Source: an uncultured Rhodospirillaceae bacterium (GTDB lineage Bacteria > Pseudomonadota > Alphaproteobacteria > SP197). From it: a DNA stretch of 64,000 bases. Shown here one piece after another: positions 18,820 to 59,575 of the stretch; positions within the stretch are counted from its first letter, which is position 1; every line of letters begins with the position of its first letter. Where the stretch lies: positions 23,792 through 87,791 of the forward strand of contig CAZGYG010000003.1 in assembly GCA_964530335.1 (NCBI GenBank), given 5' to 3'. Under the pieces are notes generated by a model that did no database searches, had not been told where the DNA came from, and saw only the letters and a program-made list of their open reading frames with translations. Made by a program: the position numbers and the translations under genes.

Positions 18820-18823
<4 letters not shown>

Positions 18824-22903: not shown

Positions 22904-22907
22904 GGGA

Positions 22908-24134: not shown

Positions 24135-24144
24135 CGGGCGGCTG

Positions 24145-28208: not shown

Positions 28209-28237
28209 CCGCGACAGAACGTGAAGGAGACCTGACC

Positions 28238-28696
28238 ATGAGCTTGCACGAGGACGTCGACGCGCTGCGGGCGATCCCGCTGTTCGCCAAGGTCGAGTCG
28301 AGCAAGCTCAAGCTGCTCGCCTTCACGAGCGAACGGTTGTCGTTCAACGCGGACCAGGAGCTGTTCCACCAGGGCGATCCCGGCGACGCGCTCTACATCA
28401 TCCTGGACGGCGAGGCCGAGGTGCTGGTCGACACGCCGGGCGGGCCGATCCACGTGGCGACCGTGGGCCGGCACGGCTTCTTCGGCGACATCGCCATCCT
28501 GTGCGACGTGCCGCGCACCGCCACGGTCAAGGCGACCCAGCCCCTGACCACGCTCCGCATCAGCAAGGATCTGTTCTTCCAGCTTGTCACCCAGTTCCCG
28601 CAGATCTCGATCGAGATCATGCGCGAGCTCGCGCACAGGCTGGAACGGACTACCCGCGCCTACCGCGAAGCCGTCGCCAAGGCCCAGGCGCGTTAG
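28238..28696 (+). CDS. Cyclic-nucleotide-binding domain protein (stand-alone cNMP-binding/CAP effector domain)
   Basis: FGDIAILCDVPRTATVKA cNMP-binding beta-roll motif; 152 aa; 29 nt downstream of the ABC gene. Confidence 0.85.
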   Translation: MSLHEDVDALRAIPLFAKVESSKLKLLAFTSERLSFNADQELFHQGDPGDALYIILDGEAEVLVDTPGGPIHVATVGRHGFFGDIAILCDVPRTATVKATQPLTTLRISKDLFFQLVTQFPQISIEIMRELAHRLERTTRAYREAVAKAQAR

Positions 28697-29478
28697 CGCC
28701 CGGTGAACGTGGGCCGGCGCTTGGCGGCGAAGGCGCGGAGCCCTTCCTTCACGTCCTCGGAGGCGAAGCACGCGAGGGTTTCGCTCTTGAGCCATCCGGC
28801 ATCCAGCTCGCCCAGCTCGATCTCGCCGAGCGCCCGCTTCATCGCCCGCACCGCCCTGGGCGCCAACCCGGCGATGGTCTCGGCCAGAGTTTTTGTCGTC
28901 GCGGCCAGCGCCTCGGCGGGCACCACCCGGTCGAGGTAGCCGGCGCGCCACAGTTCGTCGGCCTCCAGCACCTCGTCGCCCAGCAGCAGACGGCGCGCCG
29001 CGTTGGCCGAAAGCCGGGTCGCGAAGCGGCGCAGGCCGCTCTCGTGCAGCACCACGCCGAGACGCGCCGGCGGCATGCCCAGCCGCATCCCCGCCACGCC
29101 GATCCGGAGGTCGCACGCGAGCGCCAGATCGCCGGCGGCGCCGAACACCAGGCCGTTGAGCGCGGCGACGGTCGGCACGGCGAAGGCCGCGACCCGGTCG
29201 ATCAGCGCCTCGACCGGGTTGTCGCGCCAGTCGGTCGCCAGGATGTCGCCGAGGTCGATGCCGGCGCAGAACGCCTTGGTTCCGGCACCGGTCAGCACCA
29301 GGACCCGCGCGTCGTGGGCGACGACCCGGTCGAGCGCGTCGTGGAACGCGGGCAGATCGCCGATGCCGAGCACGTTGTGCCGATCCGGCCGGTCGAGCGT
29401 GATCCGGGCGATCGGGCCTTCGAGCGCGAGCCGGATCGGGCCGGTCACGGCCGTCCTCGCTGCGCGACGCCCGGCCAT
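28693..29478 (-). CDS. Enoyl-CoA hydratase/isomerase (crotonase) family protein
   Basis: VLTGAGTKAFCAGIDL oxyanion-hole motif; 261 aa. Confidence 0.85.
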   Translation of the reverse strand: MAGRRAARTAVTGPIRLALEGPIARITLDRPDRHNVLGIGDLPAFHDALDRVVAHDARVLVLTGAGTKAFCAGIDLGDILATDWRDNPVEALIDRVAAFAVPTVAALNGLVFGAAGDLALACDLRIGVAGMRLGMPPARLGVVLHESGLRRFATRLSANAARRLLLGDEVLEADELWRAGYLDRVVPAEALAATTKTLAETIAGLAPRAVRAMKRALGEIELGELDAGWLKSETLACFASEDVKEGLRAFAAKRRPTFTGR

Positions 29479-30281
29479 CAGGTCGCCCCGCCGGCCCGGG
29501 CCGCCAGCACCCTCTCGGCCAGCGCCAGGTCCTCGGGCTTGTCGACGTCGATCGCGGCCTCGGCCGAGGCGATCGGAACCAGCGCGATGTCGAGCCCGAC
29601 CCGGCGCTCGAGCCGGCGCACCGCGCCCCGGCGCGTCAGCAGGCCAAGCGCGTAGGCGAGCCCGGTCAGCGGCCCGACCGTGGCCAGCAGCCGCATGGGA
29701 TGTTTGCGGTGGCGCTCGAGCCGTTGCCAGAACCGGGCGACGCGCCGCGAGCCGGGCGTCATCAGCGCGAACAGGTTGGTGCCCTTGATGTCGCCGTCGC
29801 GAAAGCGCAGGAACGTGCGCCGGGCGTCGGGGAAGGCCCGGCGCACGAGGTCGGCCTCGACGATGCCGACCGCGGCGTCCACGCCCTTCGGCACGGCGTT
29901 CCAGAACGCCGCGACCAGCGCCGGGGTCAGCAAGGCGTGGTCCGCCGTCGTCACCAGCAGCGGCGGGGACAACGCGTCGAACGCGGCCTCGACGCTGGCG
30001 GCGGCGCTGGCGCGGCTGGCCAGCGCCTCGAGCCGCCCGGCCTCGACCTCGCGCGCCAGCGCTGGGCATTGGGCGAGCACCGCGGCCCGGTCGATGCTGA
30101 CCACGATCCGCCCGACGCAGCCGCTCGCCCTGAGCGCCTCGACCACGCGCTGGAGCATGGGCACGCCGGCCACCGGCACCAGCGCCTTGTGGCCGACGCC
30201 CGCGGCCAGCGCGACCGGATCCTCGGGGCGGCCCGCGGCCAGCACCAGCGCGGTCGGCAGTTCGTCGGACGCCGTCGTCAT
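29478..30281 (-). CDS. MobA-like nucleotidyltransferase (NTP_transferase_3 fold)
   Basis: ALVLAAGRPEDP...ALVPVAGVPMLQRVVEAL; 267 aa; overlaps its neighbours by 1 and 4 nt. Confidence 0.7.
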   Translation of the reverse strand: MTTASDELPTALVLAAGRPEDPVALAAGVGHKALVPVAGVPMLQRVVEALRASGCVGRIVVSIDRAAVLAQCPALAREVEAGRLEALASRASAAASVEAAFDALSPPLLVTTADHALLTPALVAAFWNAVPKGVDAAVGIVEADLVRRAFPDARRTFLRFRDGDIKGTNLFALMTPGSRRVARFWQRLERHRKHPMRLLATVGPLTGLAYALGLLTRRGAVRRLERRVGLDIALVPIASAEAAIDVDKPEDLALAERVLAARAGGAT

Positions 30282-31408
30282 GCCAGCGCTTTCGCGTAGA
30301 TGCGGTACGTCCTGTAGACGCGACCGCCGACCGATTCGACCATGTGGCGCACCGGCATGTTGTCCTCGAGCAGCCACGAAAGTTCCGCGCGCGTGTAGCC
30401 CTTGGCGCTCGCCCGGCGCCGCACCGCGTCGATCGCCAGGAACGCGACCGCCGCGCCGGCCATGGACCCGGCCAGGTCGGGGCGCACGCCCATCAGCGGC
30501 ACGCGCAGGCTCGTGACCCCACGCACCTTGAGCCGCCACACGAGCTTGAGCCAACCGAACGGCAGCAAACGCCCGCCGAGGTCGGCGATCGCCGCGTTCA
30601 GATTGGGCAGGGCCACGGCGAAGCCGGCGAGCCGGCCATCGAGCTCGACCAGCGCGACCAGGGCCGGGTCGATCAAGGGCTTCATGGCCTTGGCCATGTG
30701 CGCCATCTCCTCGGCGGTCAGAGGCAGCGCGCCCCAGTTGCCGGCCCAGGCCTCGTTGTAGAGCGCGAGGGCGGCGCCCACGTCCCGGGCGTAAGTGCGA
30801 GGATCGAGCGCGCGCACGGTGATGCGGCCCGAGTCGCGCTCGACGATGCGCCGGACCGCCTCGGGCAGCGGCTGGGCCAGGTCGTAGACGTAGGCCAGCA
30901 GGTCCTTGGCCTTGGCGTAGCCGCACGCCTCCAGGTAGCGGCCGTAGCTCGGCGGCGCGTGGCCCATCATGACCATGGGCGGGGTGTCGAAGCCCTCGAC
31001 CAGAAGCCCGGATTCCTCGTTGATCGACAGGTTGAACGGGCCGAGCACGCGCTTCATGCCGCGCCCGGCGAGCCAGGCCTCGGCGGCGGCGGTCAGCGCG
31101 CGGAAGACGTCCTCGTCGGCGCCCTCGATCAATCCGAAGTGCCCGGTGGCGTCGCCGTATTTCTCGAGGTGGAGCCGGTCGATCTGGGCGCTGATGCGCC
31201 CGACCGCTCGCCCGCCCCGCCGGGCCAGCCACAACCGTGCCTCGGCGTGGCGGAAATAGGGGTTTTTCCCCGGGTCGAGCGCCTCGCGCCGCTCCACGAT
31301 CAGCGGCGGCACGAAGCAGGCGTCGCCGCCTTGAAGCCCGTGGGCCACGCGGATGAAGGCGGTCAGGTCGGCGCCGCCCGCGATCGGCGCGACGCTCAAC
31401 TCGGCCAA
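30278..31408 (-). CDS. GNAT-fold acyltransferase-like protein (COG3146-like); candidate bacterial ceramide synthase
   Basis: About 376 aa if started at TTG (LAELSVAPIAGG...). The track start at 31489 would overlap the upstream hydroxylase gene by 76 nt and encodes a Gly/Ala/Arg-rich N-terminus. Family assignment is from memory only. Confidence 0.45.
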   Translation of the reverse strand: MAELSVAPIAGGADLTAFIRVAHGLQGGDACFVPPLIVERREALDPGKNPYFRHAEARLWLARRGGRAVGRISAQIDRLHLEKYGDATGHFGLIEGADEDVFRALTAAAEAWLAGRGMKRVLGPFNLSINEESGLLVEGFDTPPMVMMGHAPPSYGRYLEACGYAKAKDLLAYVYDLAQPLPEAVRRIVERDSGRITVRALDPRTYARDVGAALALYNEAWAGNWGALPLTAEEMAHMAKAMKPLIDPALVALVELDGRLAGFAVALPNLNAAIADLGGRLLPFGWLKLVWRLKVRGVTSLRVPLMGVRPDLAGSMAGAAVAFLAIDAVRRRASAKGYTRAELSWLLEDNMPVRHMVESVGGRVYRTYRIYAKALA

Positions 31409-31413
31409 GGGCT

Positions 31414-32184
31414 TCAGGGCTCGACGACCGCGTCGCGGTAGCGCGGCGGGCGCGCCAGCGGCGCCCGCCCCGACAGCCGGGCGACCCACGGGTAACGTTC
31501 GGCCTCGGCCTCGTCATAGCCCAGGTTGAAGGTGGTCGGGCTGCGCTCGCGCAGGGTCGTCGCGGCGTAGTACGTGCCGAACAGGCGGTCGGGCATGAAG
31601 CCGGTGATGCCGAAGTTGCCCTGCTCGTTGTGGAAGTGGTGCGCCAGGTGAAGCTGCTTGACCCGGGCGAGCCACGGGTTGCGCGGCTTGACGTTGAGGT
31701 GCTGGACGCAGTGGCAGAACTCGTAGCCGATCGTCGTCGCCAAGCCGACGGCGAGCGCCATCGCGGCTCCGGCGGCGCCGTCGACCAGCGCGCCGATCGG
31801 CGCCGTCGCCACCAGGATCGTCGGCAGCGTCGTCGACAACGCGCCGAACAGCACCTCGAGCCGGTGCGGGTCCTGGTGGTGGTCGAAGTGGATGCGCTTC
31901 CACAACCGCGCGGTTAGCGCCGAACGATAGAGATAGCGCCCGTGCAGCACGAAGCGGTGCAGCGCGTACCAGACGAACGGGTAAATGAAAAACGCGAGAA
32001 CCCCGGCCAGGAAGGTCGCCGGGCCGTGGCCGGGCTCGAACCACGCGGCCCAGGCGCCGACGGCCGCCACGGTCAGCGCCGCGTACTCCAGCACCGCCGG
32101 GTACGTGGCGAAAACCCGTACCAGGTCGGCCACGGACATGCGGCCCAGGTCGTAGCCGTGGCCACGCCAGGATTTGGCGATCAT
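31414..32184 (-). CDS. Fatty-acid hydroxylase superfamily membrane protein (sterol-desaturase/sphingolipid-hydroxylase-like)
   Basis: His boxes HRFVLH, HFDHH, HLAHHFH; 256 aa from ATG MIAKSW... Confidence 0.8.
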   Translation of the reverse strand: MIAKSWRGHGYDLGRMSVADLVRVFATYPAVLEYAALTVAAVGAWAAWFEPGHGPATFLAGVLAFFIYPFVWYALHRFVLHGRYLYRSALTARLWKRIHFDHHQDPHRLEVLFGALSTTLPTILVATAPIGALVDGAAGAAMALAVGLATTIGYEFCHCVQHLNVKPRNPWLARVKQLHLAHHFHNEQGNFGITGFMPDRLFGTYYAATTLRERSPTTFNLGYDEAEAERYPWVARLSGRAPLARPPRYRDAVVEP

Positions 32185-32216
32185 GGGCGGGTCTCGGTCA
32201 TGACGATGCCCACAGA

Positions 32217-33416
32217 TTAAGGTGCCTGCCGGGGCGCCGACAAGGGATCGGGTGGGCTTGCCATGTGCAGTGCGGTACGCACGCCATGCCACAGGGCGGT
32301 AAGCACCTGCCACGCCGCGATCGCGTGGAACGCCGCCCCGCCCCACCCGAGAAGAAGCCCGATCGTCAGAATCACCAGATTGACGTTGCGCCGCGCGATG
32401 ACGGTGCGCACCCGGGCGTCGAGCGGCGTCAGGCTGTGCAGGCCGCGCTTGAAGCGGGCCTTGGCGACCATCAGCACCAGCCGATCGACGACGTAGGCCG
32501 CGCACAGCACGACGGCGGAGGCGACGATCGCGTCGTTCGCGCCCGCCCCTGAAAGCGCCCACGCCCACGCCGCGTACCACAACGGCGGGTGGACGATGTC
32601 GAGGCCGTGGTCGAGCACGTTGCCGAGCGGCGAATCCGTCAGCGTCAGCCGCGCGAGCTTGCCGTCGACCGAATCGAGCACGCTCATGGCGTAGGCCGCG
32701 GCCAGCCCCGGCAGCCAGTATCCGGCGGCGCACAGCGGCACCGTCGCGGCGGCCAGCACGATGCCGGCGACCGTCACCCAGTTGGGGTGCAGGCGCCGGG
32801 CGCTCGCCGCCAGCACCAGGCGCCAGACCAGCGGCGGGTAGACCCACTTGGTCAGGAAGTCGGTCGAGCCCTTGGTGTTCGCCAGGAACAGCGTGCGCTC
32901 GCAGCGCCGCCGCGCCGCCGCGTTGTCGAGCCGGTAGCCCCAAACCGGCACGTCGCGGCGCAGGTGGGCGACGAAGCTCGGCAGCGCGCTCGTGTCGAGC
33001 ACGCGCACGCGCCCGGCCGCCTCGAGCCGGCCGAGCGCGTCCGCGAGATCGTTGGCCTCGGCGATCAAGCCGCTGTCCTCGGGCTCGATCAGTCCCACCA
33101 AGGCGCCATCGGGGAAGCGGATGGCCCCGCCGGCGCCGAGCGCGGCCAGGGCCCGGTCATCGATGACGTCGCGCCCGTCCAGCGCCAGCACCGGTTCCCG
33201 GGCCGCGGCGAGATACCGTGCCAACCGTGGCCCCAACGGACCCGTCTCCGCGCCGTGGCGCACGGTCAGGCCCCGTGCCGCCGTCGCCGCGCCGCCGGAA
33301 ACGAACACCTCGGTCGGCCGTGGGGCGAGGCGCGCGAGCGCACGCAAGGCGCGCTCGACCAGGTCCAGGCCGAACAGCCGTTCCGCCGGCGAGGTGGCAT
33401 CGATCCACGCCTTCAT
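32217..33416 (-). CDS. CDP-alcohol phosphatidyltransferase family protein with N-terminal extra domain (paralog A)
   Basis: DSVDGKLARLT...LDHGLDIVHPPLWYAAWA, the CDP-OH-P-transferase D-G-x2-A-R...D motif; about 399 aa. Confidence 0.7.
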   Translation of the reverse strand: MKAWIDATSPAERLFGLDLVERALRALARLAPRPTEVFVSGGAATAARGLTVRHGAETGPLGPRLARYLAAAREPVLALDGRDVIDDRALAALGAGGAIRFPDGALVGLIEPEDSGLIAEANDLADALGRLEAAGRVRVLDTSALPSFVAHLRRDVPVWGYRLDNAAARRRCERTLFLANTKGSTDFLTKWVYPPLVWRLVLAASARRLHPNWVTVAGIVLAAATVPLCAAGYWLPGLAAAYAMSVLDSVDGKLARLTLTDSPLGNVLDHGLDIVHPPLWYAAWAWALSGAGANDAIVASAVVLCAAYVVDRLVLMVAKARFKRGLHSLTPLDARVRTVIARRNVNLVILTIGLLLGWGGAAFHAIAAWQVLTALWHGVRTALHMASPPDPLSAPRQAP

Positions 33417-33420
33417 GCCC

Positions 33421-34476
33421 TCAGCCTTCGGCGTGGACCAGGATCGCGCCGCCGACGCTGGCGAACACCAGGGCGGGCACCCAGGCCGCGAGCAGCGCGG
33501 GCAGCGCGCCGGCCTCGGCCAGGACCTGCACCAGGCCGTCGGCCACCAGATAACCGAACGCGATCGCGCCGCCGAACAGGAGGCCGCGCAGCGCGCCGGC
33601 GCGCCCGCGCACGCCGCGCGCGACCGGCGCCGCGATCAGGATCATCAGCGGCACCGCGAAGGGCGCGGCGAACTTCTCGTGCCATTGCACCCGGTAGAAC
33701 GTGCGCGTGCGCGGGCCGAGCCGGGTCGCGGCGATGAGCTCGGCGAGCTCGGCCAGGCCGTAGGCCTCGGCCGGTTGCGCCAGGCCGGCGAAGTCGTCGG
33801 GCACGGCGCTGGTTGGCCAGGCGAGGCGCGCCGCGCGCGTCACGTCGCCGTCGGCCGTGACCCGCACCGCGTCGTGCAGCACCCAGCCGGCGGCGTGCTC
33901 GGCCGCGCGGGCGTCGGTGCGCGCGATGACCGCGCCGCTGGCGTCGCGCTCGATCACCAGTGGGGCGTTGAGCCAGGCGCCGTCGGGCGCGACGCCCGCG
34001 AAACTCACGATACCGTCCTTGAGCCGCACCCAGACGCGGTCCTGGTCGTCGTCGGGCTCCGCCGTGCGCTCGAGCCAGACGCGCAGCGCCCGGTCGGCCG
34101 GCGGCGCTACCAGCTCGCCCAGGGCGAAATGACCGAGCGCGATGACCAGCGCCACCGGCATCAGCCCGGCGAGCAGGCGGTAGTACGAACGGCCCGCGGC
34201 CTTCGCCGCGACGACCTCGAAGCTGGACCCCAGCCGGGCGAGCGCCAGCAGCGCGCCGACCAGCGCCGCGATCGGCACGAGTTGGAGCACGATCAGCGGC
34301 AGGCGGAACCCGGCGTAGGTCGCGACCGCGCCGAGGCCGCCGTCGCCGCGCGCCGCCATGTCGGTCGCGTTCTCGAGCAGATCGAGCAGCTCGACGACGC
34401 CCGCGAAGCCGACCAGCGCGACGACGAACCGGCCGGCGAACAGGCGCGCCACGTAGCGGTCCAGCCGGCCGGTCAC
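33421..34476 (-). CDS. lptG: LPS export ABC permease LptG (YjgP/YjgQ family)
   Basis: GTG start (VTGRLDRYVARLF...) in GTGA overlap with the lptF stop; typical LptG N-terminus. Confidence 0.8.
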   Translation of the reverse strand: MTGRLDRYVARLFAGRFVVALVGFAGVVELLDLLENATDMAARGDGGLGAVATYAGFRLPLIVLQLVPIAALVGALLALARLGSSFEVVAAKAAGRSYYRLLAGLMPVALVIALGHFALGELVAPPADRALRVWLERTAEPDDDQDRVWVRLKDGIVSFAGVAPDGAWLNAPLVIERDASGAVIARTDARAAEHAAGWVLHDAVRVTADGDVTRAARLAWPTSAVPDDFAGLAQPAEAYGLAELAELIAATRLGPRTRTFYRVQWHEKFAAPFAVPLMILIAAPVARGVRGRAGALRGLLFGGAIAFGYLVADGLVQVLAEAGALPALLAAWVPALVFASVGGAILVHAEG

Positions 34477-35660
34477 GCGCCCTCCAGCCCCGGTCGGGCG
34501 CGGCCGAACCGCGCGGCGACGCGGCGCCCGGCGCCGTCGAGCCCGTCGAGCACGGCGTCCAGCGGGGTCGCGCCCGGCCGCCGCGCGACACGCGCGCTGA
34601 GCCACAGCCCGAAGGCGCCGAACGCGGCGAACGGCAGCCACAGGGCCGGTCCGGCGGCGACGTAGCCGAGGTCGGCCAGGCTTTCGCCGAACTGGAGCAC
34701 ATGGTGATAGATCAGCAGCACCAGGACGGCCGCCACCAGCCCGGCGCCCTGGCGCGCGCGCTTCGTCGCCAGGCCGAACGGCGCCGCGACGAACGGCAGC
34801 AGGATCAGCGAGACCGCGCGCACCAGGCGGGCATGGAGTTCGGCGCGCACGCGCTGGCCCTCGTCGCCGCCGTCGCCGCGCCGCGCCCACAGCTCGCCCA
34901 GCGTCAACTCACGCTCGCCCTCGCCGCGCAGCCGGAACGGGGCCAGCGCACCGGCGACGTCGAGCGCCACGTCGAGGCTGTCGAAGCGCAGCACCGCCGG
35001 GTCCTCGACCCCGGGGCCGGAACGGATCTCGACGCCGTCGCTCAGGTGCAGCACCAGGCCTTCGCCGTTCTCGGCGCGCGCCAGCCGGCCGGACCGCGCG
35101 CCGGTGGTCAGCCCGCCCGCTTCGTCGCGCCGGTCGATGACGATGCCGCCAAGCTCGTTCGCCGCGGCATCGACGCGCTCGGCCATCAGCGTCAACGTGC
35201 CGTCCGAGATGAACGCGCCCGGTTCGAGCGAGGCGTCCCACGCGGCGTTGGTCACCACGTAGACGACCGAGCGATAGGCGTAGCGGCTGTGCGGCTGCAA
35301 CCAGCCGAGCAGCGCCAGGCTGGCGACGGCGAGCACGGCGGCGAACGCGACCAGCGGCGCGATCAGCCGGGGGAACCCGACGCCCGCGGCGAACGCCGCG
35401 TCGAGCTCGCTCTGGGCCGCGAGCCGGCTGGTCATCGCGAAGACCGCCAGGAAGAACGCCGCCGGCAGCGCCATGCCCATGTAGTGCGGCACCAGATTGG
35501 CGATCATGCGCAGCACCAGCGTCAACGGCCCGCCCTTGTTGGCGAGCAAGTCCAAGAGCCTCAGCAGCCGTTCCAGGAGCAGCGCGGCGAGCACCACCCC
35601 AATGCCGAGCACCAGGGGCCTCAAGGTCTCGATCAGGACGTATCGGTCGAGCACGCGCAT
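34473..35660 (-). CDS. lptF: LPS export ABC permease LptF (YjgP/YjgQ family)
   Basis: MRVLDRYVLIETLRPLVLGIGVVLAALLL... canonical LptF N-terminus; 395 aa. Confidence 0.8.
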   Translation of the reverse strand: MRVLDRYVLIETLRPLVLGIGVVLAALLLERLLRLLDLLANKGGPLTLVLRMIANLVPHYMGMALPAAFFLAVFAMTSRLAAQSELDAAFAAGVGFPRLIAPLVAFAAVLAVASLALLGWLQPHSRYAYRSVVYVVTNAAWDASLEPGAFISDGTLTLMAERVDAAANELGGIVIDRRDEAGGLTTGARSGRLARAENGEGLVLHLSDGVEIRSGPGVEDPAVLRFDSLDVALDVAGALAPFRLRGEGERELTLGELWARRGDGGDEGQRVRAELHARLVRAVSLILLPFVAAPFGLATKRARQGAGLVAAVLVLLIYHHVLQFGESLADLGYVAAGPALWLPFAAFGAFGLWLSARVARRPGATPLDAVLDGLDGAGRRVAARFGRARPGLEGA

Positions 35661-35681
35661 CGCAAAGACGGGAATCGCGGC

Positions 35682-36125
35682 TCAGGTCCGGCCGGGCCAG
35701 ACCCGGCCGATCGCCTCGACCAGGGCGGGCACCAGGGTATCCGGCACGGTCATCGGCCTGGTCGGATCGGGCGGGCGTGGCCACGCCGCGTCCTCGAACG
35801 ACTGCCCGGCGAATTCGCGCGCCGCCGCGTAGCGCGGGAAGACGTGGAAGTGGACGTCCGGGTCCACCATCATCAGCATCAGGTAGTTGATCCGGTCGTA
35901 AGCGAACAGGCCGTGGAGCGCCGCCTCGGCATCGCGCACCATGCCGCGCAATTCGAGGAACGCCTCGGAGCCGAGCGCGCCGAAGGCGCGCGCGGGCTCG
36001 GTCGAGACCAGGACCAGCGAGCCGAGCGTGACCTGCTGCGGCCGCACCAACGCGACCCAGCGCCGGGTCTCGGCCACCCGGTTCGCCGGATCGCCGAACT
36101 TGGTCATGGTCGCATTGGCCGCCAT
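35682..36125 (-). CDS. HIT-family (histidine triad) protein
   Basis: DVHFHVFPRY histidine-triad-like motif; 147 aa; start uncertain (alternative Met at residue 7). Confidence 0.55.
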   Translation of the reverse strand: MAANATMTKFGDPANRVAETRRWVALVRPQQVTLGSLVLVSTEPARAFGALGSEAFLELRGMVRDAEAALHGLFAYDRINYLMLMMVDPDVHFHVFPRYAAAREFAGQSFEDAAWPRPPDPTRPMTVPDTLVPALVEAIGRVWPGRT

Positions 36126-36162
36126 TCTGGTTCCCCGCCGGTCGAGGCCACGATAGTGGCGG

Positions 36163-37074
36163 CTAGGCGCCGACGCCAGCCGCGCCGACGCGGAGCTCGT
36201 AGTCGGCGATCTCGGCCAGGCGCGGGGTTTCGCCGTCGACCAGGGCGCGGGTGGTCACCCGGATGCGCCAGCCGGCACGTTCCGGCTCGATCCGATAGAG
36301 GTTCCACGCCGCGGCTTCGGCGTGGCGCACCGGCCGCGCCGAGCCCGAGGGTACGCCGATCACCGGGGCATGGCCCGCCCCCGTCGGGAAGCGGCCGAAC
36401 CCGGAGGTGTGCGTGTGGCCGTGCAGGATCAGTTCGACCCCGGCGCGCGCCACCGCCTGGGCGAACGGCGCCATGTCGATCAGGCTCTTGCGCCGGGGTC
36501 CGGCCGGCAGTGGCGGGTGGTGGATCAGCATCACCCGGCAAAGCCCTTCGCGCCCCAGCTGGCCGAGCAGGCGCTCGGTCGCCGCAATCTGCTCGGGGCC
36601 GACGCGGCCGCCGGCGCTGCGCCACGGCATCGGCGCCGCCGTGCTGACGCCGATGAGCGCGACGCGCCCGCGCACCCGGAGCGTCGGGAAACGTGCGTCG
36701 CCGTCGTCGCCGGCCATGAACGCGCGCCAGTGCTCCAGAGTTTCGGCCGGATCGATGGCGACGTAGTGATCGTGGTTGCCTGGCACGACCGTGACCTCGG
36801 CCGGCGCCCCGAGGCTCTCGAGCCAGCGCGCGGCCAGACGGAATTCCTCCGGCAGCGAGATGTTGCACAGGTCGCCGGTGAGGGCGATGTGGTCCGGCGC
36901 CCGCGCCTTGAGGTCGGCGACCAGCGCGGCCAGCACCTCGGGCCGATGGATGTACCGCCGGCGGCGCAGCCAGTTGAGCGCGCCGAGCGCGCGCTTGGAA
37001 GCGAGCAGCCTGGGCGGCGGCCACGGCAGCGGCAGATGCGGGTCCGTCAGGTGGGCCAGCGCGAACGGGGTCAT
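36163..37074 (-). CDS. Metallophosphoesterase (calcineurin-like phosphoesterase)
   Basis: HLTDPH, TGDL, GNHD, HHPP, GHTH motif series. Confidence 0.8.
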   Translation of the reverse strand: MTPFALAHLTDPHLPLPWPPPRLLASKRALGALNWLRRRRYIHRPEVLAALVADLKARAPDHIALTGDLCNISLPEEFRLAARWLESLGAPAEVTVVPGNHDHYVAIDPAETLEHWRAFMAGDDGDARFPTLRVRGRVALIGVSTAAPMPWRSAGGRVGPEQIAATERLLGQLGREGLCRVMLIHHPPLPAGPRRKSLIDMAPFAQAVARAGVELILHGHTHTSGFGRFPTGAGHAPVIGVPSGSARPVRHAEAAAWNLYRIEPERAGWRIRVTTRALVDGETPRLAEIADYELRVGAAGVGA

Positions 37075-37168
37075 GGCGGCGGGAAGTCCGGGCTTCGCGG
37101 AAAACGCCCGCGGAGTGTATCAAAGGAGCGTCGCGGGCGTCGCGGCGAAGGGCGGCCGGCAAGGAGCG

Positions 37169-38326
37169 ATGGCGGAACTCGACACGGAACGCGCGATGCC
37201 GGTTACGGCGGCCGTGGTGGTCGGCGACCACGGCGTCGCGCCGTTCGGGGTGACGCCGGCCGAGCGCCTGGTCCGCGCGCTCCGGCGGGCGGGGGTCGCG
37301 GCGATCGCGCGCCATCCCGAATCTCCGCCGCCGGCGGACCGGATCGTCGTGGTGCGCGCCGATCATCTCTACGACGAGGCGATCGTGCGCGCGCTCGTGG
37401 CGCGCGACGGCGTGCTGCTGGTCGATGGCAAGGGGGCCGCGCTCGCCGCCACCGTGGCGGCGGCGGATGCCCCGGCGCTGGCCGCGGCGCTGGCCGCCGG
37501 CCAGAGGGTGCCGGACGGGCTTCGGCACCTGACCGCGACCGACGCGGGCGATCTGGCCCCGGCGTACCGCGATGCCCTGCGCAAGCGGGCCCAACCGCTG
37601 CTCGTCGCGCTCGACGGCACGACGCGGCGCGCGGCCGAGCGGCGGCTGTTCGACGACGCCTACAAGGGCGTCACCGACATCGTCACCAAGTACCTGTGGC
37701 CGTGGCCCGCGTTCCATGCGACGCGGCTCGCCGCCGCGCTCGGCGTCAGCGCCAACCAGGTGACCTGGGCGAGCCTTGCGTTCGTGCTCGCCGCGCTGGT
37801 GCTGTTCCGCGACGGGCTGTACCTGGCCGGGCTCGGCTGCGCCTGGGCCATGTGCCTCCTCGACACCGTCGACGGCAAGCTCGCGCGCGTCACCCTCGCC
37901 TCCAGCCGGTTCGGCAACGCGCTCGACCACGGCATCGATCTGGTGCATCCGCCGTTCTGGTACCTGGCGTGGGCCGCGGCGCTCGAGGACGCCGGCTTCG
38001 CGGTGCGCGAGCTCACCCTCGCCGTGGTCGCGGGCTATGTCGCCGGGCGCTTGCAGGAAGGCCTGTTCCTGTGGCGGTTCGGCATCGAGATGCACGTCTG
38101 GCGCCGGTTCGATTCGCGCTTCAGGCTTATCACCGCGCGGCGCAACCCGAACCTCGTGCTGCTGAGCATCGGCGCGCTCGCCGGTCGGCCCGAGCTCGGT
38201 TTCGCCGCCGTGGCCCTGTGGACAGTGGCCACGTTCGGCTTGCACTTGGTGCGCATCGGCCAGGCGCTGATCGCGGGCCGGCGGCCCGGGGGCGTGCGTT
38301 CGTGGCTCGCCGAACCGGGCACATGA
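37169..38326 (+). CDS. CDP-alcohol phosphatidyltransferase family protein with N-terminal extra domain (paralog B)
   Basis: LDTVDGKLARVT...LDHGIDLVHPPFWYLAWA; ATG preceded by AAGGAG; paralogous to 32217..33416. Confidence 0.7.
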   Translation: MAELDTERAMPVTAAVVVGDHGVAPFGVTPAERLVRALRRAGVAAIARHPESPPPADRIVVVRADHLYDEAIVRALVARDGVLLVDGKGAALAATVAAADAPALAAALAAGQRVPDGLRHLTATDAGDLAPAYRDALRKRAQPLLVALDGTTRRAAERRLFDDAYKGVTDIVTKYLWPWPAFHATRLAAALGVSANQVTWASLAFVLAALVLFRDGLYLAGLGCAWAMCLLDTVDGKLARVTLASSRFGNALDHGIDLVHPPFWYLAWAAALEDAGFAVRELTLAVVAGYVAGRLQEGLFLWRFGIEMHVWRRFDSRFRLITARRNPNLVLLSIGALAGRPELGFAAVALWTVATFGLHLVRIGQALIAGRRPGGVRSWLAEPGT

Positions 38327-39258
38327 CCCGCGTCGCCGTCGTCACCAATCCGCGCAGCCGCCGCAACCGGCGTCACGGTCCCGGCGTCGGGCGCCCGGCC
38401 ATCGAGCGCGCGGGCGCGCTCCAGGTAACGATGGGGCGGGATCATGACCTGGGCGCGGCGTTCGCCGAATTCGCCGCCGCCGGGGTCGGACTGGTCGTGA
38501 TCGACGGCGGCGACGGCACGGTCCGCGCGGCGCTCGCCGCGGCGTTTGCTCAGCCGGGCTTCGTTCCGCGCTTCGCCGCGCTTGGCTCGGGCACCACCAA
38601 CATGATCGCCGCCGACGTCGGGCCGCGTGGCGACCGCGCCGCCGCGTTCGACCGGCTGGTCGCGCTTGGCGGCAGTCTCGATCGCCATACCCTGTGGCGG
38701 AACCCGATTCGGCTCACGGGCGCCAGGGATGGCGTGCCGCACTACGGCTTCTTCTTCGGCGCCGGGGCGCTGGCCTGGGGCACGCGCCTGACCCGGCGCC
38801 GCATTCAACGCGGCCCGCTGGCCAGCGTGGCCGGCACCGCGATCGGCATCGCGGCGACCGCGGGGCTGCTCGCGCTCGGCCTCGGGCGCCCAGGCGTCGA
38901 ACTCGCCGTCGGCTACGACGACGGTCCCGTCGTCGCTGGCCGGCGCACCCTGTTGCTCGTGTCGACGCTCGAACGTCTCGTCGGCGGGATGCATCCGTTC
39001 TGGGGCGACGGCGACGGCGCGCTTAAGGTGCTCGACATCGCCGCGCCGTGCCGCCGGTTTGCCTGCGCCGCGCCGGCGCTGGTGCGCGGTCGGCCCAGCC
39101 CGTGGCTCGCCGCGGCGGGCTATCGCAGCCGTCGCGCCCACCGGCTCGAGCTCGAGCTCGCCGAGGACGCAGTGTTCGACGGCGAGTGGATCGTCCCCAA
39201 GCCCGGCGAGCGGCTGGTGCTCGACGCGGCCCCGGCGGTCGGGTTCGTGCGGCCATGA
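38323..39258 (+). CDS. Diacylglycerol-kinase catalytic-domain lipid kinase (YegS/ceramide-kinase-like)
   Basis: VTNPRSRRN...VIDGGDGTV DAGK_cat motifs; ATGA overlap with the upstream stop. Confidence 0.8.
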   Translation: MTRVAVVTNPRSRRNRRHGPGVGRPAIERAGALQVTMGRDHDLGAAFAEFAAAGVGLVVIDGGDGTVRAALAAAFAQPGFVPRFAALGSGTTNMIAADVGPRGDRAAAFDRLVALGGSLDRHTLWRNPIRLTGARDGVPHYGFFFGAGALAWGTRLTRRRIQRGPLASVAGTAIGIAATAGLLALGLGRPGVELAVGYDDGPVVAGRRTLLLVSTLERLVGGMHPFWGDGDGALKVLDIAAPCRRFACAAPALVRGRPSPWLAAAGYRSRRAHRLELELAEDAVFDGEWIVPKPGERLVLDAAPAVGFVRP

Positions 39259-40214
39259 CCGGCGACCCGCTCGACCGGCTGGTCGCGCTGGTCGCGCCGG
39301 AATCCCGGGCGACCGTGCCGGCGGAGCTCGGCGTCGTCGTCGCGGCGCTGCGTGCCCGCTTCGGTCCGGCCGTGGCGGCGGTGCTTTATTACGGTTCGTG
39401 CCTGCGGCTGGGCACGCTCGATGGCGTGATCGACGTCTACGTGCTGATCGATGACGTCGCGCCCGCGCCCCTGCGGCGGCGGGCGATGGGCGGTGCGATC
39501 CTGGCCTTGGCGTGCCGGCTCCTGCCGCCCAACGTCTACCACCTGTCGGTCGATGGGCCGCGCACGCTTGCCGTCAAGGCGGCGGTGATGTCGCTCGCGG
39601 GCTTCGCGCGGGGCCTCGAGGTAACGGCTTTCGTGCCGGCGCTCTGGGCGCGCTTCGCCCAGCCGGCCGTGGCGGTCTACGCCCGCGACGAGGCGATCGC
39701 GGCATCGCTCGATCGTTTGCGCGCCCGGGCCGTCGCCACCGCGGCGTGGCACGGCGCCCATCTGGCGCCTGCCCGCGCGGAGCCCTTGGAGCCGTGGCGC
39801 CGCGTGTTCCGCGCGACCTACGGCTGCGAGTTGCGCGCCGAGGCTGTCGACCGGGCCGACGCGGTGGTCGAGGCGGCGGCCCTGCGCTACGCCGAGCTGA
39901 CGCGCCCCGCGCTCGCCGCCGCCGGGATCGCCTGGACCGAGGGGACGGGTGCGCTCGAACTCGCGGTAGGCGCCGGTGCGCGTCGCCGCGCGCGGCTGGC
40001 CTGGGCGCTGCGCCGCCCCGCCGGCAAGCTGCTGAGTCTGCTCAGGTTGGCCAAGGCCGCATTCACGTTCGAGGGTGGCGCCGACTACCTGGCGTGGAAG
40101 ATCGAGCGTCATGCCGGCGTGCGGCCCGCGCTCTCGCCCTGGCAGCGGCGTCACCCGCTGCTTGCGCTGCCTTTGCTGGCCTGGCGGCTTTGGCGCCAGG
40201 GCGTTGTGCGCTAG
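39255..40214 (+). CDS. Hypothetical protein, possibly nucleotidyltransferase-fold (YYGS...IDVYVLIDD)
   Basis: ATGA overlap with the kinase stop; 319 aa; no firm family; 3' end is convergent on spt. Confidence 0.4.
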   Translation: MTGDPLDRLVALVAPESRATVPAELGVVVAALRARFGPAVAAVLYYGSCLRLGTLDGVIDVYVLIDDVAPAPLRRRAMGGAILALACRLLPPNVYHLSVDGPRTLAVKAAVMSLAGFARGLEVTAFVPALWARFAQPAVAVYARDEAIAASLDRLRARAVATAAWHGAHLAPARAEPLEPWRRVFRATYGCELRAEAVDRADAVVEAAALRYAELTRPALAAAGIAWTEGTGALELAVGAGARRRARLAWALRRPAGKLLSLLRLAKAAFTFEGGADYLAWKIERHAGVRPALSPWQRRHPLLALPLLAWRLWRQGVVR

Positions 40215-41428
40215 CCCGCGGCGACGGCGAGGCTCGGCTTGAGCACGCCGAGCGCGACGCCGGTGTCGTTGAACACGTCGACCATGCGCGCGATCTGCTT
40301 GCGCGTGTGGGCGGCCGAGATGCTGCAGCGCAGCAGGGGATTGCCCCCCGGGGTCGCCGGCGGCAAGGCCAGGTTCACGTACACGCCGTTCTCGAGCAGC
40401 ATGTTCCAGAACCTGATGGCGATCTCGACGTCGGGCAGCTTGACCGCGACCACCGGGCTGACCTGCGGGCCGAGCTCGTAGCCGAGCCCGCCGAGCCCGT
40501 CGTACAGCGCGCGGGCGTTGCCGGCGAGCCGGGTGCGCAGTTCGGGCCGGCGTTCGACGATCTCGAGCGCCTTGAGCACCGAGGCCATGATGCTCGGCGG
40601 CAGCGAGGCCGTGAACATGTACGGCCGGCACGCGACGCGCAGCACGTCGAAGTCCTCGTGATCCGAAACGCAGAAGCCGCCCACCGCGCCCAGGCTCTTG
40701 CTGAACGTGCCGACGACGTAATCGACGTCCGCCTCGCAGCCCGCCTCCTCGGCCAGGCCGCGGCCCAGGCGCCCGAGCACGCCCATCGAATGGGCCTCGT
40801 CGACCATCAGGTAGGCGCCGTGGCGGCGCTTGATCGCGACGAACTCGGCCAGCGGCGCGCGGTCGCCGACCATGCTGTAGATGCCCTCGACGATGATCAG
40901 GCGCGCCTGGCCGTCCGCGGGAAGCCGGCTCAGGCGCCGGTCCAGGTCGACCGGGTCGTTGTGGCGGAACCGCGTCACCTTGGCCCCGCCCAGCCGGCAG
41001 CCGTCGTAGATGCTGGCGTGGCAATCGGCGTCGATGACTAGGTGGTCGTTCGGCCCGGCGAGCGTCGAGATCATGCCCAGGTTGGCCTGATAGCCGGTCG
41101 AGAACACCATGCAATGCCGCCGTCCGTAGTAGCGCGCGAGTTCCAGTTCGAGCTGGCAATGGGCGGTGTACGAGCCGTTGGCGATGCGCGAACCGGTGGT
41201 GCCGGTGCCTTCATGGCTGAGCGACGCGATGGCGGCCTCGATGCACTCCGGATCGAAGGTCAGGCCCAGGTAGTTGTTGGTGCCGACCAGCAGGGTACGC
41301 CGACCCTCGATGATCGCCTCGGTCGGCGAGATCACCTTGTCGATCGATACCTTGAACGGGTTGCGGCCACGCTCGGCGAGCGCCCGGTAGGTCGCCGCCA
41401 GTGGCGCGAACTTCGCGTACAGGTCCAT
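40211..41428 (-). CDS. spt: Serine palmitoyltransferase (alpha-oxoamine synthase family, PLP-dependent)
   Basis: GTFSKSLG PLP-lysine motif; 405 aa. The context (dedicated ACP, SDR, acyl-ACP synthetase) argues for Spt rather than BioF/Kbl. Confidence 0.75.
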   Translation of the reverse strand: MDLYAKFAPLAATYRALAERGRNPFKVSIDKVISPTEAIIEGRRTLLVGTNNYLGLTFDPECIEAAIASLSHEGTGTTGSRIANGSYTAHCQLELELARYYGRRHCMVFSTGYQANLGMISTLAGPNDHLVIDADCHASIYDGCRLGGAKVTRFRHNDPVDLDRRLSRLPADGQARLIIVEGIYSMVGDRAPLAEFVAIKRRHGAYLMVDEAHSMGVLGRLGRGLAEEAGCEADVDYVVGTFSKSLGAVGGFCVSDHEDFDVLRVACRPYMFTASLPPSIMASVLKALEIVERRPELRTRLAGNARALYDGLGGLGYELGPQVSPVVAVKLPDVEIAIRFWNMLLENGVYVNLALPPATPGGNPLLRCSISAAHTRKQIARMVDVFNDTGVALGVLKPSLAVAAG

Positions 41429-41431: not shown

Positions 41432-41686
41432 TCAGGCGGCTCCCTTCTTGATCTTCGCGATGGCCAGCGCGAGGTCGCGCACGGTCTCGATCTCTGGCAA
41501 GTGGTTGAGCGAAATCGACACGTCGAACTGGTCCTCGAGCGTCATCAGCAGGTCCATTTCGGCCAGCGAATCCAGGTTGAGGTCGCGCTTCAGCAGCGTG
41601 CCCTCGTTGACCGCGAACCGACCCTTGGTCGCCGCGGCCAGGATGTCGCTGATCGTCCCGACGATCTCGCCGTAATTCTCGGTCAT
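41432..41686 (-). CDS. Acyl carrier protein (sphingolipid-pathway-dedicated type)
   Basis: 84 aa; LDSLAEMDLLM phosphopantetheine-attachment Ser motif; 3 nt upstream of spt. Confidence 0.8.
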   Translation of the reverse strand: MTENYGEIVGTISDILAAATKGRFAVNEGTLLKRDLNLDSLAEMDLLMTLEDQFDVSISLNHLPEIETVRDLALAIAKIKKGAA

Positions 41687-41964: not shown

Positions 41965-42885
41965 TCAGGCGCCGATCCAGCCCCGTTCACGGTACCAGGC
42001 GACGGTCTCGGCGAGGCCTTGCTCGAGCCCGATGCTCGGCCGCCAGCCGTCGGGCCAGGGCGCCTGGCGCCGCCAGTCCGGGTGGACGAGCTCGCGTGCC
42101 TTGCCGGGGGAGAAGAACGCCGCCCGGCCGGAGGCCCGGGCGAGCGCCCCGGCCGCGTGACCGGCCACCAGGAACGCGGGCGCCGGCAGCGCCATGGTGC
42201 GCGCCGAACGCCCCAGGGCGGCGCCGGCCAGGGCCACGACCTCGGCCCAGAGGTAGCCGCCTTCGCGGCCGTCGTCGAGCTCGCGGACCCCGGTTTCGCG
42301 CGTGGCCAGCGCCGCCGCGATCGCGCGGGCGACGTCGGCGACGTGGACGAAGCTGACCCGGGCCTCGCGCCGCACCGGCACGATGCCGAGCCCGACGGCC
42401 CTGAACAGGACGAGCATGGCGGTGTCCCATGGGCCGTAGACGGCGGTCGGGCGCAGCACCAGCCAGTCGCCGCCCGCGGCCGCGACGGCCTGTTCGCCGG
42501 CCAACTTGCTCGCGGCGTAGTCGGAAAGCCCGGGCTCGCGCGCGGCGATCGAGGACACCAGCACGGCGCGGGGCACGTTCGCCGCGCGCGCCGCCACGGC
42601 CACGCCCCGCGCGCCCGCCTCGTTGGCGGCCCGGAAGCCCTGGCGGTCGCGGGCCCGCACCAGGCCGGCCAGGTGGACCACGGCGTCGGCACCCGCCACC
42701 AGATCGGCCAGCGCCGCGGCATCACCCAGATCGCCGGGCACCGCCTGATACCGCCGCCCGGCCCACAGCGGATGGGTTGGCGATCGTCGGGCGAGCAGGC
42801 GCACGGTCCACCCGGAGTCCATCAACAGGCGCGCGACGTGGCCGCCGATGAATCCGGTGCCCCCGGTCAGGGCCACCGTCGCCAT
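41965..42885 (-). CDS. NAD-dependent epimerase/dehydratase family SDR (ceramide-reductase CerR-like)
   Basis: MATVALTGGTGFIGGHV Rossmann motif; YxxxK (YAASK); 306 aa. Confidence 0.8.
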   Translation of the reverse strand: MATVALTGGTGFIGGHVARLLMDSGWTVRLLARRSPTHPLWAGRRYQAVPGDLGDAAALADLVAGADAVVHLAGLVRARDRQGFRAANEAGARGVAVAARAANVPRAVLVSSIAAREPGLSDYAASKLAGEQAVAAAGGDWLVLRPTAVYGPWDTAMLVLFRAVGLGIVPVRREARVSFVHVADVARAIAAALATRETGVRELDDGREGGYLWAEVVALAGAALGRSARTMALPAPAFLVAGHAAGALARASGRAAFFSPGKARELVHPDWRRQAPWPDGWRPSIGLEQGLAETVAWYRERGWIGA

Positions 42886-46457: not shown

Positions 46458-46527
46458 CGGAGCTGTCGCGGCGCATGCGGGGTCGTGCGCGGCCTGCTAG
46501 AACGGGCACACCCCGTCCACGCCCGCG

Positions 46528-58480: not shown

Positions 58481-59575
58481 GTGGAACGAATCGTGGTCGA
58501 CTTCGCGCAACGCCCACGCCGCAGGCTCGAGACGGGCGATGCGCTCGAGCGCGGCGACCGGGTGCCGAACTTCTGGCTGCCCGACCAAACGGGCGAAGGC
58601 ATCATGTTCTACGAGGCAGTGCAGGGTCGGCCGATCCTCGTGGTCCTGCATCGCGCCACTCGCGAGCCCGCGCACGTCGCCGCGCTCAAGGGGCTGATCG
58701 AGTTCGCCCGCCGCCACGAAGTCCATCCGTTCGCCATCGGTCGGGATTCGGTCGCCGCGCACGCGGCGCTCGGGCTCGACGCTCCGCTCCTCGCCGATGT
58801 CGAAGGCCGCATTACCGCCCAGCTCACGCGCCGACTCGGCCAGGGTACGACCGAGACGGCGCCCGTGGTGCTGGTGTGCGACCCCAACCAGCGCTTGCTC
58901 GACACCTTGGTGGTCACGGACCTGGCGGCCGCGACCGAGCGCATAGCGGCGCTCATGGCGCCGTTCGCGCCGCGCGGCGGGGCCGCGAAGCTGCTGCGGG
59001 TGGCGCCGGTGCTCGTCGTTCCCGATGTGCTCGACGAAGCGTGGCGGCACCGCTTGATCGAGCTTTGGCACGCCGACCATGACGAGGGCAAGGTCGCCAC
59101 CCAGGTGGGCGACACGATGGAGGCGCGGCTCAACTACGGCACCAAGCGCCGGCTCGACCACACGATCACCGAGCCCGAGCTCAATCGCACCCTGGCCCGC
59201 GCGATCGCGCGGCGGATCGCCCCCGAGATGGTCAAGGCATTCCACTTCCAGGGCTTCTGGTTCGAACCCTTCATCGTCATGGGCTACGACGCGGGGCGCG
59301 CCGATTTCTTCCGCCCCCACCGGGACAATCTGATCCCGGCGCTCGCCAACCGACGCTTCGCCCTGACGCTCAACCTTAACACCGACGACTACGAAGGCGG
59401 CGACCTTCGCTTCCCCGAGTACGGCGACGAGGTCTACGGCGCGCCCGCCGGCGGGGCGGTGGTGTTCTCGTGTTCGCTCCTGCACGAGGCGCTGCCGGTC
59501 ACGCGCGGGCGCCGCTTCGCGCTTCTGAGCTTCATGCGCTCCGACGCGCCGGCATCGCGACCGGCGGCGTCCTAG
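58481..59575 (+). CDS. Fusion protein: Cys-less redoxin/AhpC-TSA-like N-terminal domain plus 2OG-Fe(II) oxygenase C-terminal domain
   Basis: N-terminal PNFWLPDQTGEGIMFYEAVQGRPILVVLHR (peroxiredoxin-like fold, no Cys). C-terminal HRD...LLHEALPVTRGRRFALLSF (His-x-Asp...His plus RxS). Confidence 0.65.
   Translation: MERIVVDFAQRPRRRLETGDALERGDRVPNFWLPDQTGEGIMFYEAVQGRPILVVLHRATREPAHVAALKGLIEFARRHEVHPFAIGRDSVAAHAALGLDAPLLADVEGRITAQLTRRLGQGTTETAPVVLVCDPNQRLLDTLVVTDLAAATERIAALMAPFAPRGGAAKLLRVAPVLVVPDVLDEAWRHRLIELWHADHDEGKVATQVGDTMEARLNYGTKRRLDHTITEPELNRTLARAIARRIAPEMVKAFHFQGFWFEPFIVMGYDAGRADFFRPHRDNLIPALANRRFALTLNLNTDDYEGGDLRFPEYGDEVYGAPAGGAVVFSCSLLHEALPVTRGRRFALLSFMRSDAPASRPAAS

Follow-up and report, generated by a model that had tools for sequence, protein, structure and literature searches.

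How sphingolipids reach the outer membrane of bacteria was an open question until recently, and the emerging answer, a second LptFG pair that shares the ATPase LptB, comes from one model organism. The question is raised again by a stretch of 64,000 nucleotides from an uncultured Rhodospirillaceae bacterium (assembly GCA_964530335.1, contig CAZGYG010000003.1, positions 23,792 to 87,791; from here: the window), in which an LptF-type and an LptG-type permease gene lie within a run of nine genes at positions 28693-37074. Which lipid would these permeases carry? We interpret the region as one arm of a Caulobacter-type island for the biosynthesis and export of sphingolipids in an uncultured high-G+C alphaproteobacterium, with the permease pair, here called LptF2 and LptG2, as a sphingolipid extractor, and assign this interpretation a probability of about 0.82. 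The window shows that an uncultured alphaproteobacterium, too, has this combined module for transport and synthesis; its locus represents another instance of a known system, in a variant that recurs elsewhere, and the general picture is unchanged.

In Caulobacter crescentus, the locus CC_1152-CC_1168 (CCNA_01210-01226) encodes a phosphoesterase (CC_1158), a HIT protein (CC_1157), "second versions" of the Lpt permeases, LptF2 and LptG2 (CC_1156/CC_1155; CCNA_01214 and CCNA_01213), the bacterial ceramide synthase bCerS (CC_1154), a CofC/MobA-like nucleotidyltransferase (CC_1153) and another nucleotidyltransferase (CC_1152), in addition to a CDP-alcohol transferase (CC_1159), a ceramide kinase (CC_1160), CC_1161 and spt, acpR, cerR and aasR (Olea-Ozuna et al. 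2024, PMC11324152). CC_1158 contributes to the conversion of CPG to CPG2, while CC_1153 and CC_1152 are needed for CPG2 formation. The permease pair was named and proposed for sphingolipid export in the same 2024 study. Caulobacter LptF2 and LptG2 were then reported to co-purify mutually and with the single cellular LptB, and deletion of either gene succeeded only in a spt or cpgB mutant background (Uchendu, Isom and Klein, bioRxiv 10.64898/2026.04.12.717747). According to the same preprint, many sphingolipid loci of alpha- and gammaproteobacteria contain lptF2G2, and in Sphingomonas wittichii the sphingolipid-locus pair is the sole LptFG. An earlier interpretation of the window, made from its letters alone (from here: the sequence-only reading), had presented sphingolipid export by Lpt permeases as a current open question; its proposal is a rediscovery of the model already put forward in these two publications.

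Gene layout of the operon

The window contains about 72% G+C, so that raw lists of its open reading frames are full of spurious frames. Frame analysis by the G+C content of third codon positions (GC3), inspection of start codons and a codon-position gene caller agreed on nine consecutive genes, all on the minus strand. From the first to the last gene, these are:

36163..37074, minus strand: metallophosphoesterase (Metallophos, PF00149)
35682..36125, minus strand: HIT-like protein (family profile against solved HIT proteins)
34473..35660, minus strand: LptF2, LptF-type permease (PF03739)
33421..34476, minus strand: LptG2, LptG-type permease (PF03739; GTG start)
32217..33416, minus strand: second CDP-alcohol phosphotransferase, CpgA paralog (PF01066)
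31414..32184, minus strand: FA_hydroxylase, membrane di-iron protein (PF04116)
30278..31408, minus strand: predicted bCerS, GNAT-like ceramide synthase (homologue family, CC_1154 label and position)
29478..30281, minus strand: MobA/CofC-like nucleotidyltransferase (NTP_transf_3, PF12804)
28693..29448 (alternative ATG start at 29478), minus strand: enoyl-CoA hydratase/isomerase, crotonase (ECH, PF00378)

The spacings between these genes are 37, 21, -4, 4, 32, 5, -4 and then, depending on the crotonase start, -1 or 29 nt, which bears out the sequence-only reading of nine minus-strand genes with gaps of at most 37 nt or overlaps. The same gene lengths had been called independently on metagenome contigs of identical sequence (L001, L002), on which the product sizes are 147, 395, 351, 399, 256, 376, 267 and 251 aa. 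The family assignments made in that reading stood as well. Seven of the nine were directly backed by Pfam and NCBIfam (Metallophos, LptF_LptG twice, CDP-OH_P_transf, FA_hydroxylase, NTP_transf_3 and ECH_1). The HIT-like and GNAT-like genes had no Pfam match, and their assignments rest on other evidence, namely a profile match to the HIT protein 2oik and membership in the CC_1154 family, respectively. A scan of the coding strand revealed no sigma-70-like promoter and no intrinsic terminator within the operon, a weak test at 72% G+C; an internal promoter or terminator around lptFG had previously been named as evidence that would speak against a common operon. The gene spacing suggests that the nine genes form one transcript.

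The LptF2/LptG2 pair within a sphingolipid island

Both permeases match the profile PF03739 (cut-off 27.9 bits) over its full length, LptF with 227 bits at profile positions 1-353 and LptG with 212 bits at positions 1-351. With the equivalog models of the canonical proteins they remain below the cut-offs, LptF at 208.0 bits (TIGR04407, cut-off 230) and LptG at 211.6 bits (TIGR04408, cut-off 240). The same holds for LptF2 and LptG2 of Caulobacter endophyticus (177 and 233 bits), while the controls scored above the cut-offs: LptF and LptG of E. coli MG1655 with 385 and 456 bits, LptG of Acidocella with 294 bits and a Desulfosarcinaceae pair with 325 and 279 bits. Solved LptF structures were matched at E = 1e-13 to 1e-9 only.

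The relationship of the pair to other permeases was analysed in a neighbour-joining tree based on Poisson distances and a joint alignment of 52 LptF and LptG sequences, with 500 bootstraps. Window LptF and LptG nest in clades composed solely of sphingolipid-locus proteins. The F2 clade was recovered in 500 and the G2 clade in 471 of the 500 replicates, canonical LptF and canonical LptG in 491 and 499. Addition of a partial canonical LptF from the alphaproteobacterium Acidocella left the F2 clade intact (491/500), with the fragment grouping with the canonical proteins (497/500), and the canonical LptG of Acidocella falls outside the G2 clade. Window LptF is 35-46% identical to other F2 proteins but only 19-23% to canonical LptF. 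Similarly, window LptG shares 28-41% identity with other locus-linked proteins, beta- and gammaproteobacterial ones included, and identities of the two window proteins to canonical proteins span 15-23%. Genes for Spt, AcpR, CerR, AasR, CpgABC-like proteins and bCerS are all located within 10 kb of the pair. Judged by scores, tree and identities, we assign the window pair to the LptF2/LptG2 paralogs of sphingolipid loci and not to canonical LptF/LptG.

Several features are shared with the canonical LptB2FG(C) complex (E. coli; PDB 6mit, 6mhu, 5x5y), i.e. the full-length Pfam match including the region of the periplasmic domain, adjacent and overlapping genes (the lptG2 GTG start and the lptF2 stop overlap by 4 nt) and the Glu of the LptB-coupling helix (E84 in E. 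coli LptF, E88 in LptG), which is kept in both window proteins. In contrast to the canonical complex, the genomic context is sphingolipid synthesis instead of pepA-holC, and the presumed substrate is a phosphosphingolipid instead of lipid A. The coupling-helix Glu is retained in most other G2 proteins, too. It is replaced by Ala in six LptG2 proteins of the Caulobacter type (L075, L080, L052, L077, L065 and L026), in which the window LptG2 differs from the Caulobacter group.

Beyond the operon, the GC3 frames show a switch of the coding frame at about 37100. The operon is one arm of a 17-kb spt-centred island, the other arm of which (37.1-44.6 kb) contains cpgA/B/C-like genes followed by spt-acpR-cerR-aasR. 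Hence, the sequence-only reading had recognized a real operon but missed its wider context. The elements of the second arm are:

37075..37168: divergent intergenic region (94 nt with the cpgA start at ATG 37169, 121 nt with a start at 37196)
37169..38326, plus strand: CpgA/CC_1159-like CDP-alcohol phosphotransferase, first gene of the divergent operon (PF01066; 45-49% identity to Caulobacter locus genes)
38323..39258, plus strand: CpgB/CC_1160-like ceramide kinase (PF00781, DAGK_cat; 35-37% identity to same-position Caulobacter genes)
39255..40214, plus strand: CpgC/CC_1161-like protein (no Pfam match; 38% identity to same-position Caulobacter genes)
40211..41428, minus strand: serine palmitoyltransferase, Spt (class-I/II aminotransferase; NF047599 with 663 bits, cut-off 500; 62% identity to Caulobacter Spt)
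41432..41686, minus strand: AcpR-like acyl carrier protein (PF00550; 42-45% identity to Caulobacter locus genes)
41965..42885, minus strand: CerR-like NAD-dependent reductase (PF01370, epimerase family; 43% identity to Caulobacter locus genes)
42887..44623, minus strand: AasR-like acyl-ACP synthetase (PF00501, AMP-binding; 48-59% identity to bCerS neighbours in many loci)

The divergent region of 94-121 nt is the obvious site for regulation common to the nine-gene operon and the cpgABC-like operon. Compared to Caulobacter CC_1158-CC_1153, the genes for the metallophosphoesterase, the HIT protein, LptF2, LptG2, bCerS and the nucleotidyltransferase occur in the same order and orientation, and both organisms possess the divergent cpgA-cpgB-cpgC genes followed by spt-acpR-cerR-aasR. 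Identities between the window and loci of the genus Caulobacter range from 34% to 62%. Unlike in Caulobacter, a CpgA paralog and the FA_hydroxylase are inserted between lptG2 and bCerS, the crotonase follows the nucleotidyltransferase, and the CC_1152 orthologue is located 23 kb away. Homologues of LptC2, CC_1166 (Wzx-like flippase) and CC_1167 of the Caulobacter locus were not recognised in the window.

To what extent this arrangement recurs was surveyed with the 376-aa bCerS protein of the window, for which more than 7500 homologues were gathered. One genome per species was scanned, 80 loci with 10-kb flanks were kept, and all window cluster proteins were compared to them by tblastn. The Lpt pair was found inside the flank in 49 of the 80 bCerS loci, and the series LptF2-LptG2-bCerS, on one strand and with zero to two genes before bCerS, in 37. 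The block metallophosphoesterase-HIT-LptF2-LptG2, present in 32 loci, is a widely conserved unit across this species-level set. The order CerR-ACP-Spt / CpgC-CpgB-CpgA / metallophosphoesterase-HIT-LptF-LptG-bCerS-nucleotidyltransferase occurs in Caulobacter endophyticus, Caulobacter sp., Brevundimonas and Phenylobacterium, as well as in many other alpha-, beta- and gammaproteobacteria. The closest relative, L006, stems from a lake-water alphaproteobacterial metagenome-assembled genome (MAG) with about 70% identity throughout and no close named genus. The full eight-gene version with both extra genes, followed by a CC_1152-like gene, was found in Sulfitobacter sp. (GCA_039976155.1) as well as Rhodospirillaceae bacterium SYSU D60014 (GCA_003576685.1). 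This recurrent variant with an extra CpgA paralog and a ceramide hydroxylase candidate may serve as a pointer for picking organisms and genes for lipidomics.

Two loci of the survey have a different Lpt gene content. In a Desulfosarcinaceae MAG (deltaproteobacterial; L057:1232-3178) the canonical-scoring LptF/LptG pair used as a control directly adjoins bCerS, and in the Acidocella MAG (L051:15696-17373) a canonical pair lies 8 kb from bCerS, with no F2/G2 pair in the flank. A nucleotide probe from an Enterobacteriaceae MAG (L031) gave no megablast or blastn match to a sphingolipid locus of the E. coli UTI89 type, and nothing was found in the literature for UTI89 together with Spt.

By analogy to Caulobacter, ceramide would be made by Spt, AcpR, AasR, bCerS and CerR. 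The Scs7-like hydroxylase would probably 2-hydroxylate the amide-linked acyl chain and the CpgB-like kinase would phosphorylate the ceramide, on which CpgC, CpgA, the two nucleotidyltransferases and the phosphoesterase would build an anionic head group of the phosphoglycerate type; the HIT protein and the extra CpgA paralog probably also act in head-group extension here. LptF2G2 would be the membrane component of an ABC extractor driven by the LptB ATPase that the cell already has; this extractor would pull the finished anionic sphingolipid from the inner membrane and pass it toward the outer membrane. With the transporter and synthesis genes in one transcript, export capacity would be matched to synthesis. 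Such matching would matter because an anionic sphingolipid stuck in the inner membrane is considered toxic, and the coupling appears sensible because Caulobacter cells that produce the anionic lipid do not survive without the transporter. The substrate, the sharing of LptB and the toxicity are taken over from the Caulobacter literature, while gene content and order, paralog clade membership, conserved motifs and folds were observed in the window.

The suggestion of the sequence-only reading that the Lpt pair is adapted to carry a sphingolipid is supported by synteny, phylogeny and the literature, which place it with the LptF2/LptG2 clade of spt/bCerS loci. That reading had also regarded a canonical lptFG pair existing beside a divergent paralog as an argument to the contrary; this is the published situation in Caulobacter and therefore supports a dedicated sphingolipid role. 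Could the window pair nevertheless be an ordinary housekeeping extractor of lipopolysaccharide (LPS) that came to lie beside lipid genes by chance? Full-length PF03739 matches, the conserved coupling-helix Glu and the canonical-type pair that adjoins bCerS in the deltaproteobacterial locus L057 are compatible with this idea. However, both equivalog scores are below the cut-off, the identity of 15-23% to canonical proteins contrasts with 28-46% to the alpha-, beta- and gammaproteobacterial pairs linked to such loci, the clades are separated with strong bootstrap values and the adjacency recurs in 49 of 80 loci. A housekeeping function appears already largely refuted by the tree, and we consider it very improbable. 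Even less credit can be given to the idea of decaying pseudo-paralogs devoid of function, with which the divergence from the canonical models would agree: the reading frames are intact with a strong codon-position G+C signal, the profiles are covered over their full length, the pair is retained in dozens of genera, its gene order has been kept, and in Caulobacter the orthologues are conditionally essential.

Another alternative is that the window pair is the only LptFG of this organism and serves whatever lipid the outer leaflet contains, which would be sphingolipid only if the cell has no LPS, and otherwise LPS together with sphingolipid. This is the arrangement reported for S. wittichii, an LPS-less organism in which the pair Swit_3905/3906, like that of the window, is located among spt, cpgB/C-like and bCerS genes (bioRxiv 10.64898/2026.04.12.717747). 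Moreover, no canonical lptFG or lpx gene exists within the 64-kb window, although 64 kb are far too small for such an absence to count. The operon is also found in lineages expected to make LPS (Caulobacter, Brevundimonas, Variovorax, Sulfitobacter), and in Caulobacter the canonical pair coexists with LptF2G2; we therefore regard a sole LptFG as unlikely. If both canonical lptFG and lpx were truly absent, the result would be a Sphingomonas-like cell without LPS, which would be the more interesting outcome.

Some points weigh against LptF2G2 as a sphingolipid extractor in this organism. The Lpt gene content of this organism was read from the 64-kb window, and the tree has a small outgroup of three canonical LptF (one of them partial) and three canonical LptG. 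No lptB, lptC2, lptA or lptDE was present among the window genes scanned. Co-transcription of the nine genes is deduced from their spacing, the window genes do not reveal the identity of the lipid made, and the support from Caulobacter for sphingolipid transport by LptF2G2, to be applied here by analogy, is indirect and consists of genetics and pull-downs from a preprint. Regarding the product, it is conceivable but doubtful that the eight-gene variant makes an anionic phosphosphingolipid unlike CPG2, with an extra or different head-group phospho-alcohol and a 2-hydroxy acyl chain and with LptF2G2 accepting it, or, further, that the lineage of the window lacks canonical lptFG altogether and forms an outer leaflet with sphingolipid only, outside the Sphingomonadales.

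Ceramide and head-group enzymes

Homologues of the window bCerS are commonly mislabelled as "dATP pyrophosphohydrolase" or named GNAT N-acetyltransferase, and the CauloKO table lists CC_1154, too, as "dATP pyrophosphohydrolase". The window protein is 52-54% identical, over 99% of its length, to the proteins encoded in the place of CC_1154 in loci of Caulobacter, Brevundimonas and Phenylobacterium; faint matches to PF00583 on some of the homologues only point to a GNAT fold. We assign 30278-31408 as the bacterial ceramide synthase bCerS, the orthologue of CC_1154 (CCNA_01212), with a predicted N-acylation activity on 3-oxosphinganine or sphinganine.

The adjoining FA_hydroxylase matches PF04116 at E = 1e-20 (75 bits, cut-off 31), and its translation contains four His boxes (HRFVLH, HFDHH, HCVQH and HLAHHFH). 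The only solved homologue is yeast Scs7p, the 2-hydroxylase of very-long-chain fatty acids in ceramide (E = 1e-9). The gene is located immediately upstream of bCerS in 28 of the 80 loci, and 31414-32184 probably encodes a ceramide acyl 2-hydroxylase. As in yeast Scs7p and mammalian FA2H, there is a membrane domain with a His-box di-iron site, here encoded next to a ceramide synthase gene. Different from these enzymes, the window protein does not possess an N-terminal cytochrome b5 domain; the 2-position is predicted. In Caulobacter, acyl hydroxylation is assigned to the DesA-family protein CC_0202, which is unrelated to the window FA_hydroxylase. A literature search for a bacterial ceramide hydroxylase of the PF04116/Scs7-like family gave nothing specific.

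At the other end of the operon, the crotonase (PF00378, E = 4e-32) had been counted as an operon member. It may be co-transcribed with the other genes, but it is probably a flanking gene outside the pathway because it is absent from 79 loci, and in the remaining one, L006, an exonuclease III-like gene (L006:10291-11091) without homologue in the window intervenes between the nucleotidyltransferase and the crotonase.

Three of the presumed head-group proteins have direct counterparts in Caulobacter. The metallophosphoesterase (PF00149, E = 3e-11) is 44-46% identical to the CC_1158-position genes of the Caulobacter loci L075 and L080, occurs in 47 of the 80 bCerS loci and is assigned as the CC_1158 orthologue. 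Likewise, the MobA-like nucleotidyltransferase (PF12804, E = 1e-12) is assigned as the orthologue of CC_1153, with 38-44% identity to the genes that come after bCerS in loci of Caulobacter and Brevundimonas and presence in 55 of the 80 loci. The HIT-like protein is 52-55% identical to Caulobacter locus genes, its family profile matches the solved HIT protein 2oik at E = 3e-10, and we assign it as the CC_1157 orthologue. Its motif D-V-H-F-H-V-[IFL]-P has Asp in place of the first triad His, whereas the other two, among them the presumed nucleophile, are invariant in all 19 family members. The mean column identity of this family is 62%. CC_1157 was deemed "probably unrelated" (PMC11324152). The occurrence of the gene in 37 bCerS loci, in 32 of them within the same four-gene block, argues that the HIT protein is part of the sphingolipid pathway.

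The second CDP-alcohol phosphotransferase, 32217-33416, consists of an N-terminal domain with a nucleotidyltransferase fold and a six-helix CDP-alcohol transferase domain (PF01066, 32 bits, cut-off 22). Its membrane half is 43% identical to the CpgA-like protein of the window (37169-38326). The signature D248xxDGxxAR(x8)G(x3)D(x3)D is intact, and D248, D251, G252, A255, R256, G265, D269 and D273 are invariant in 42 sequences. The AlphaFold2 model (pLDDT 91.8) has its best fold match over the full length in the IPCT-DIPPS of A. fulgidus (4mnd), with further matches to AF2299 (4o6m) and PIPS, and by fold the N-terminal 165 residues match cytidylyltransferases. The two-domain architecture, the full signature motif and TM values of 0.61-0.65 are thus similar to IPCT-DIPPS and AF2299. 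The protein differs from IPCT-DIPPS by an identity of only 15-17%, by 25.8 bits on the NCBIfam IPCT/DIPPS equivalog (cut-off 580) and by a degenerate glycine-rich NTP loop in the N-domain (WIDATSPAERLFG, reading ATSPAER), which is not conserved in the family. Because this loop is degenerate, cytidylyltransferase activity appears doubtful and the N-terminal domain may be regulatory. The context predicts a ceramide-linked acceptor or donor, compared to inositol phosphate in IPCT-DIPPS. A copy of the paralog is found at this position in 10 of the 80 loci, namely in Burkholderiales, in MAGs of an Enterobacteriaceae and an Azospirillaceae member and in L006, and in addition in L089 and L090.

The gene corresponding to CC_1152 is found about 23 kb off the cluster:

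59572..60324, minus strand: CC_1152-like nucleotidyltransferase (PF12804, PF00483, PF01128)

These are the same three domains as reported for CC_1152, and the identity to the CC_1152-position genes of L080 (Caulobacter sp.) and L052 (Brevundimonas) is 49-52%. A PseF-like cytidylyltransferase at 45738-46457 was rejected as the CC_1152 orthologue; unlike 59572-60324, it is not similar to the gene that Caulobacter has in the CC_1152 position. A 2OG-Fe(II) oxygenase gene of the other strand (58493-59575) directly adjoins 59572-60324.

Genes beside the island

Directly past the spt-aasR arm, the region 44656-50578 encodes an Elm1/GtrOC1-like putative glycosyltransferase, the PseF-like CMP-sugar cytidylyltransferase (99 bits, below the cut-off), a methyltransferase, a "surface carbohydrate biosynthesis protein" (TIGR04396, 322 bits) and a MsbA/HepA-like ABC exporter. 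Elm1-like genes adjoin the hydroxylase-bCerS genes in 14 of the 80 related loci. Together, these genes may form a module that glycosylates and flips the sphingolipid.

To the left of the operon, five minus-strand genes at 20056-25350 encode a GT28-like protein, a histidine phosphatase, two GT1 proteins and another GT28-like protein, which could be glycosyltransferases for a glycosphingolipid or a polysaccharide. At the left end of this run, two minus-strand open reading frames (18820-20081; 169 and 251 aa) had no Pfam match even at E = 1. Between the run and the operon, at 25545-28696, lies a gene for an 887-aa ABC exporter, the nucleotide-binding domain of which is split by a long insertion (matches at about 67-462 and 735-884), followed by a small cNMP-binding protein; the two genes are convergent with the operon end. 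This pair was rejected as a member of the module, being absent from all 80 related loci. Finally, an AcrB-type RND pump and a HlyD-family membrane-fusion protein are encoded at 51085-55307, an ordinary efflux system unrelated to the operon.

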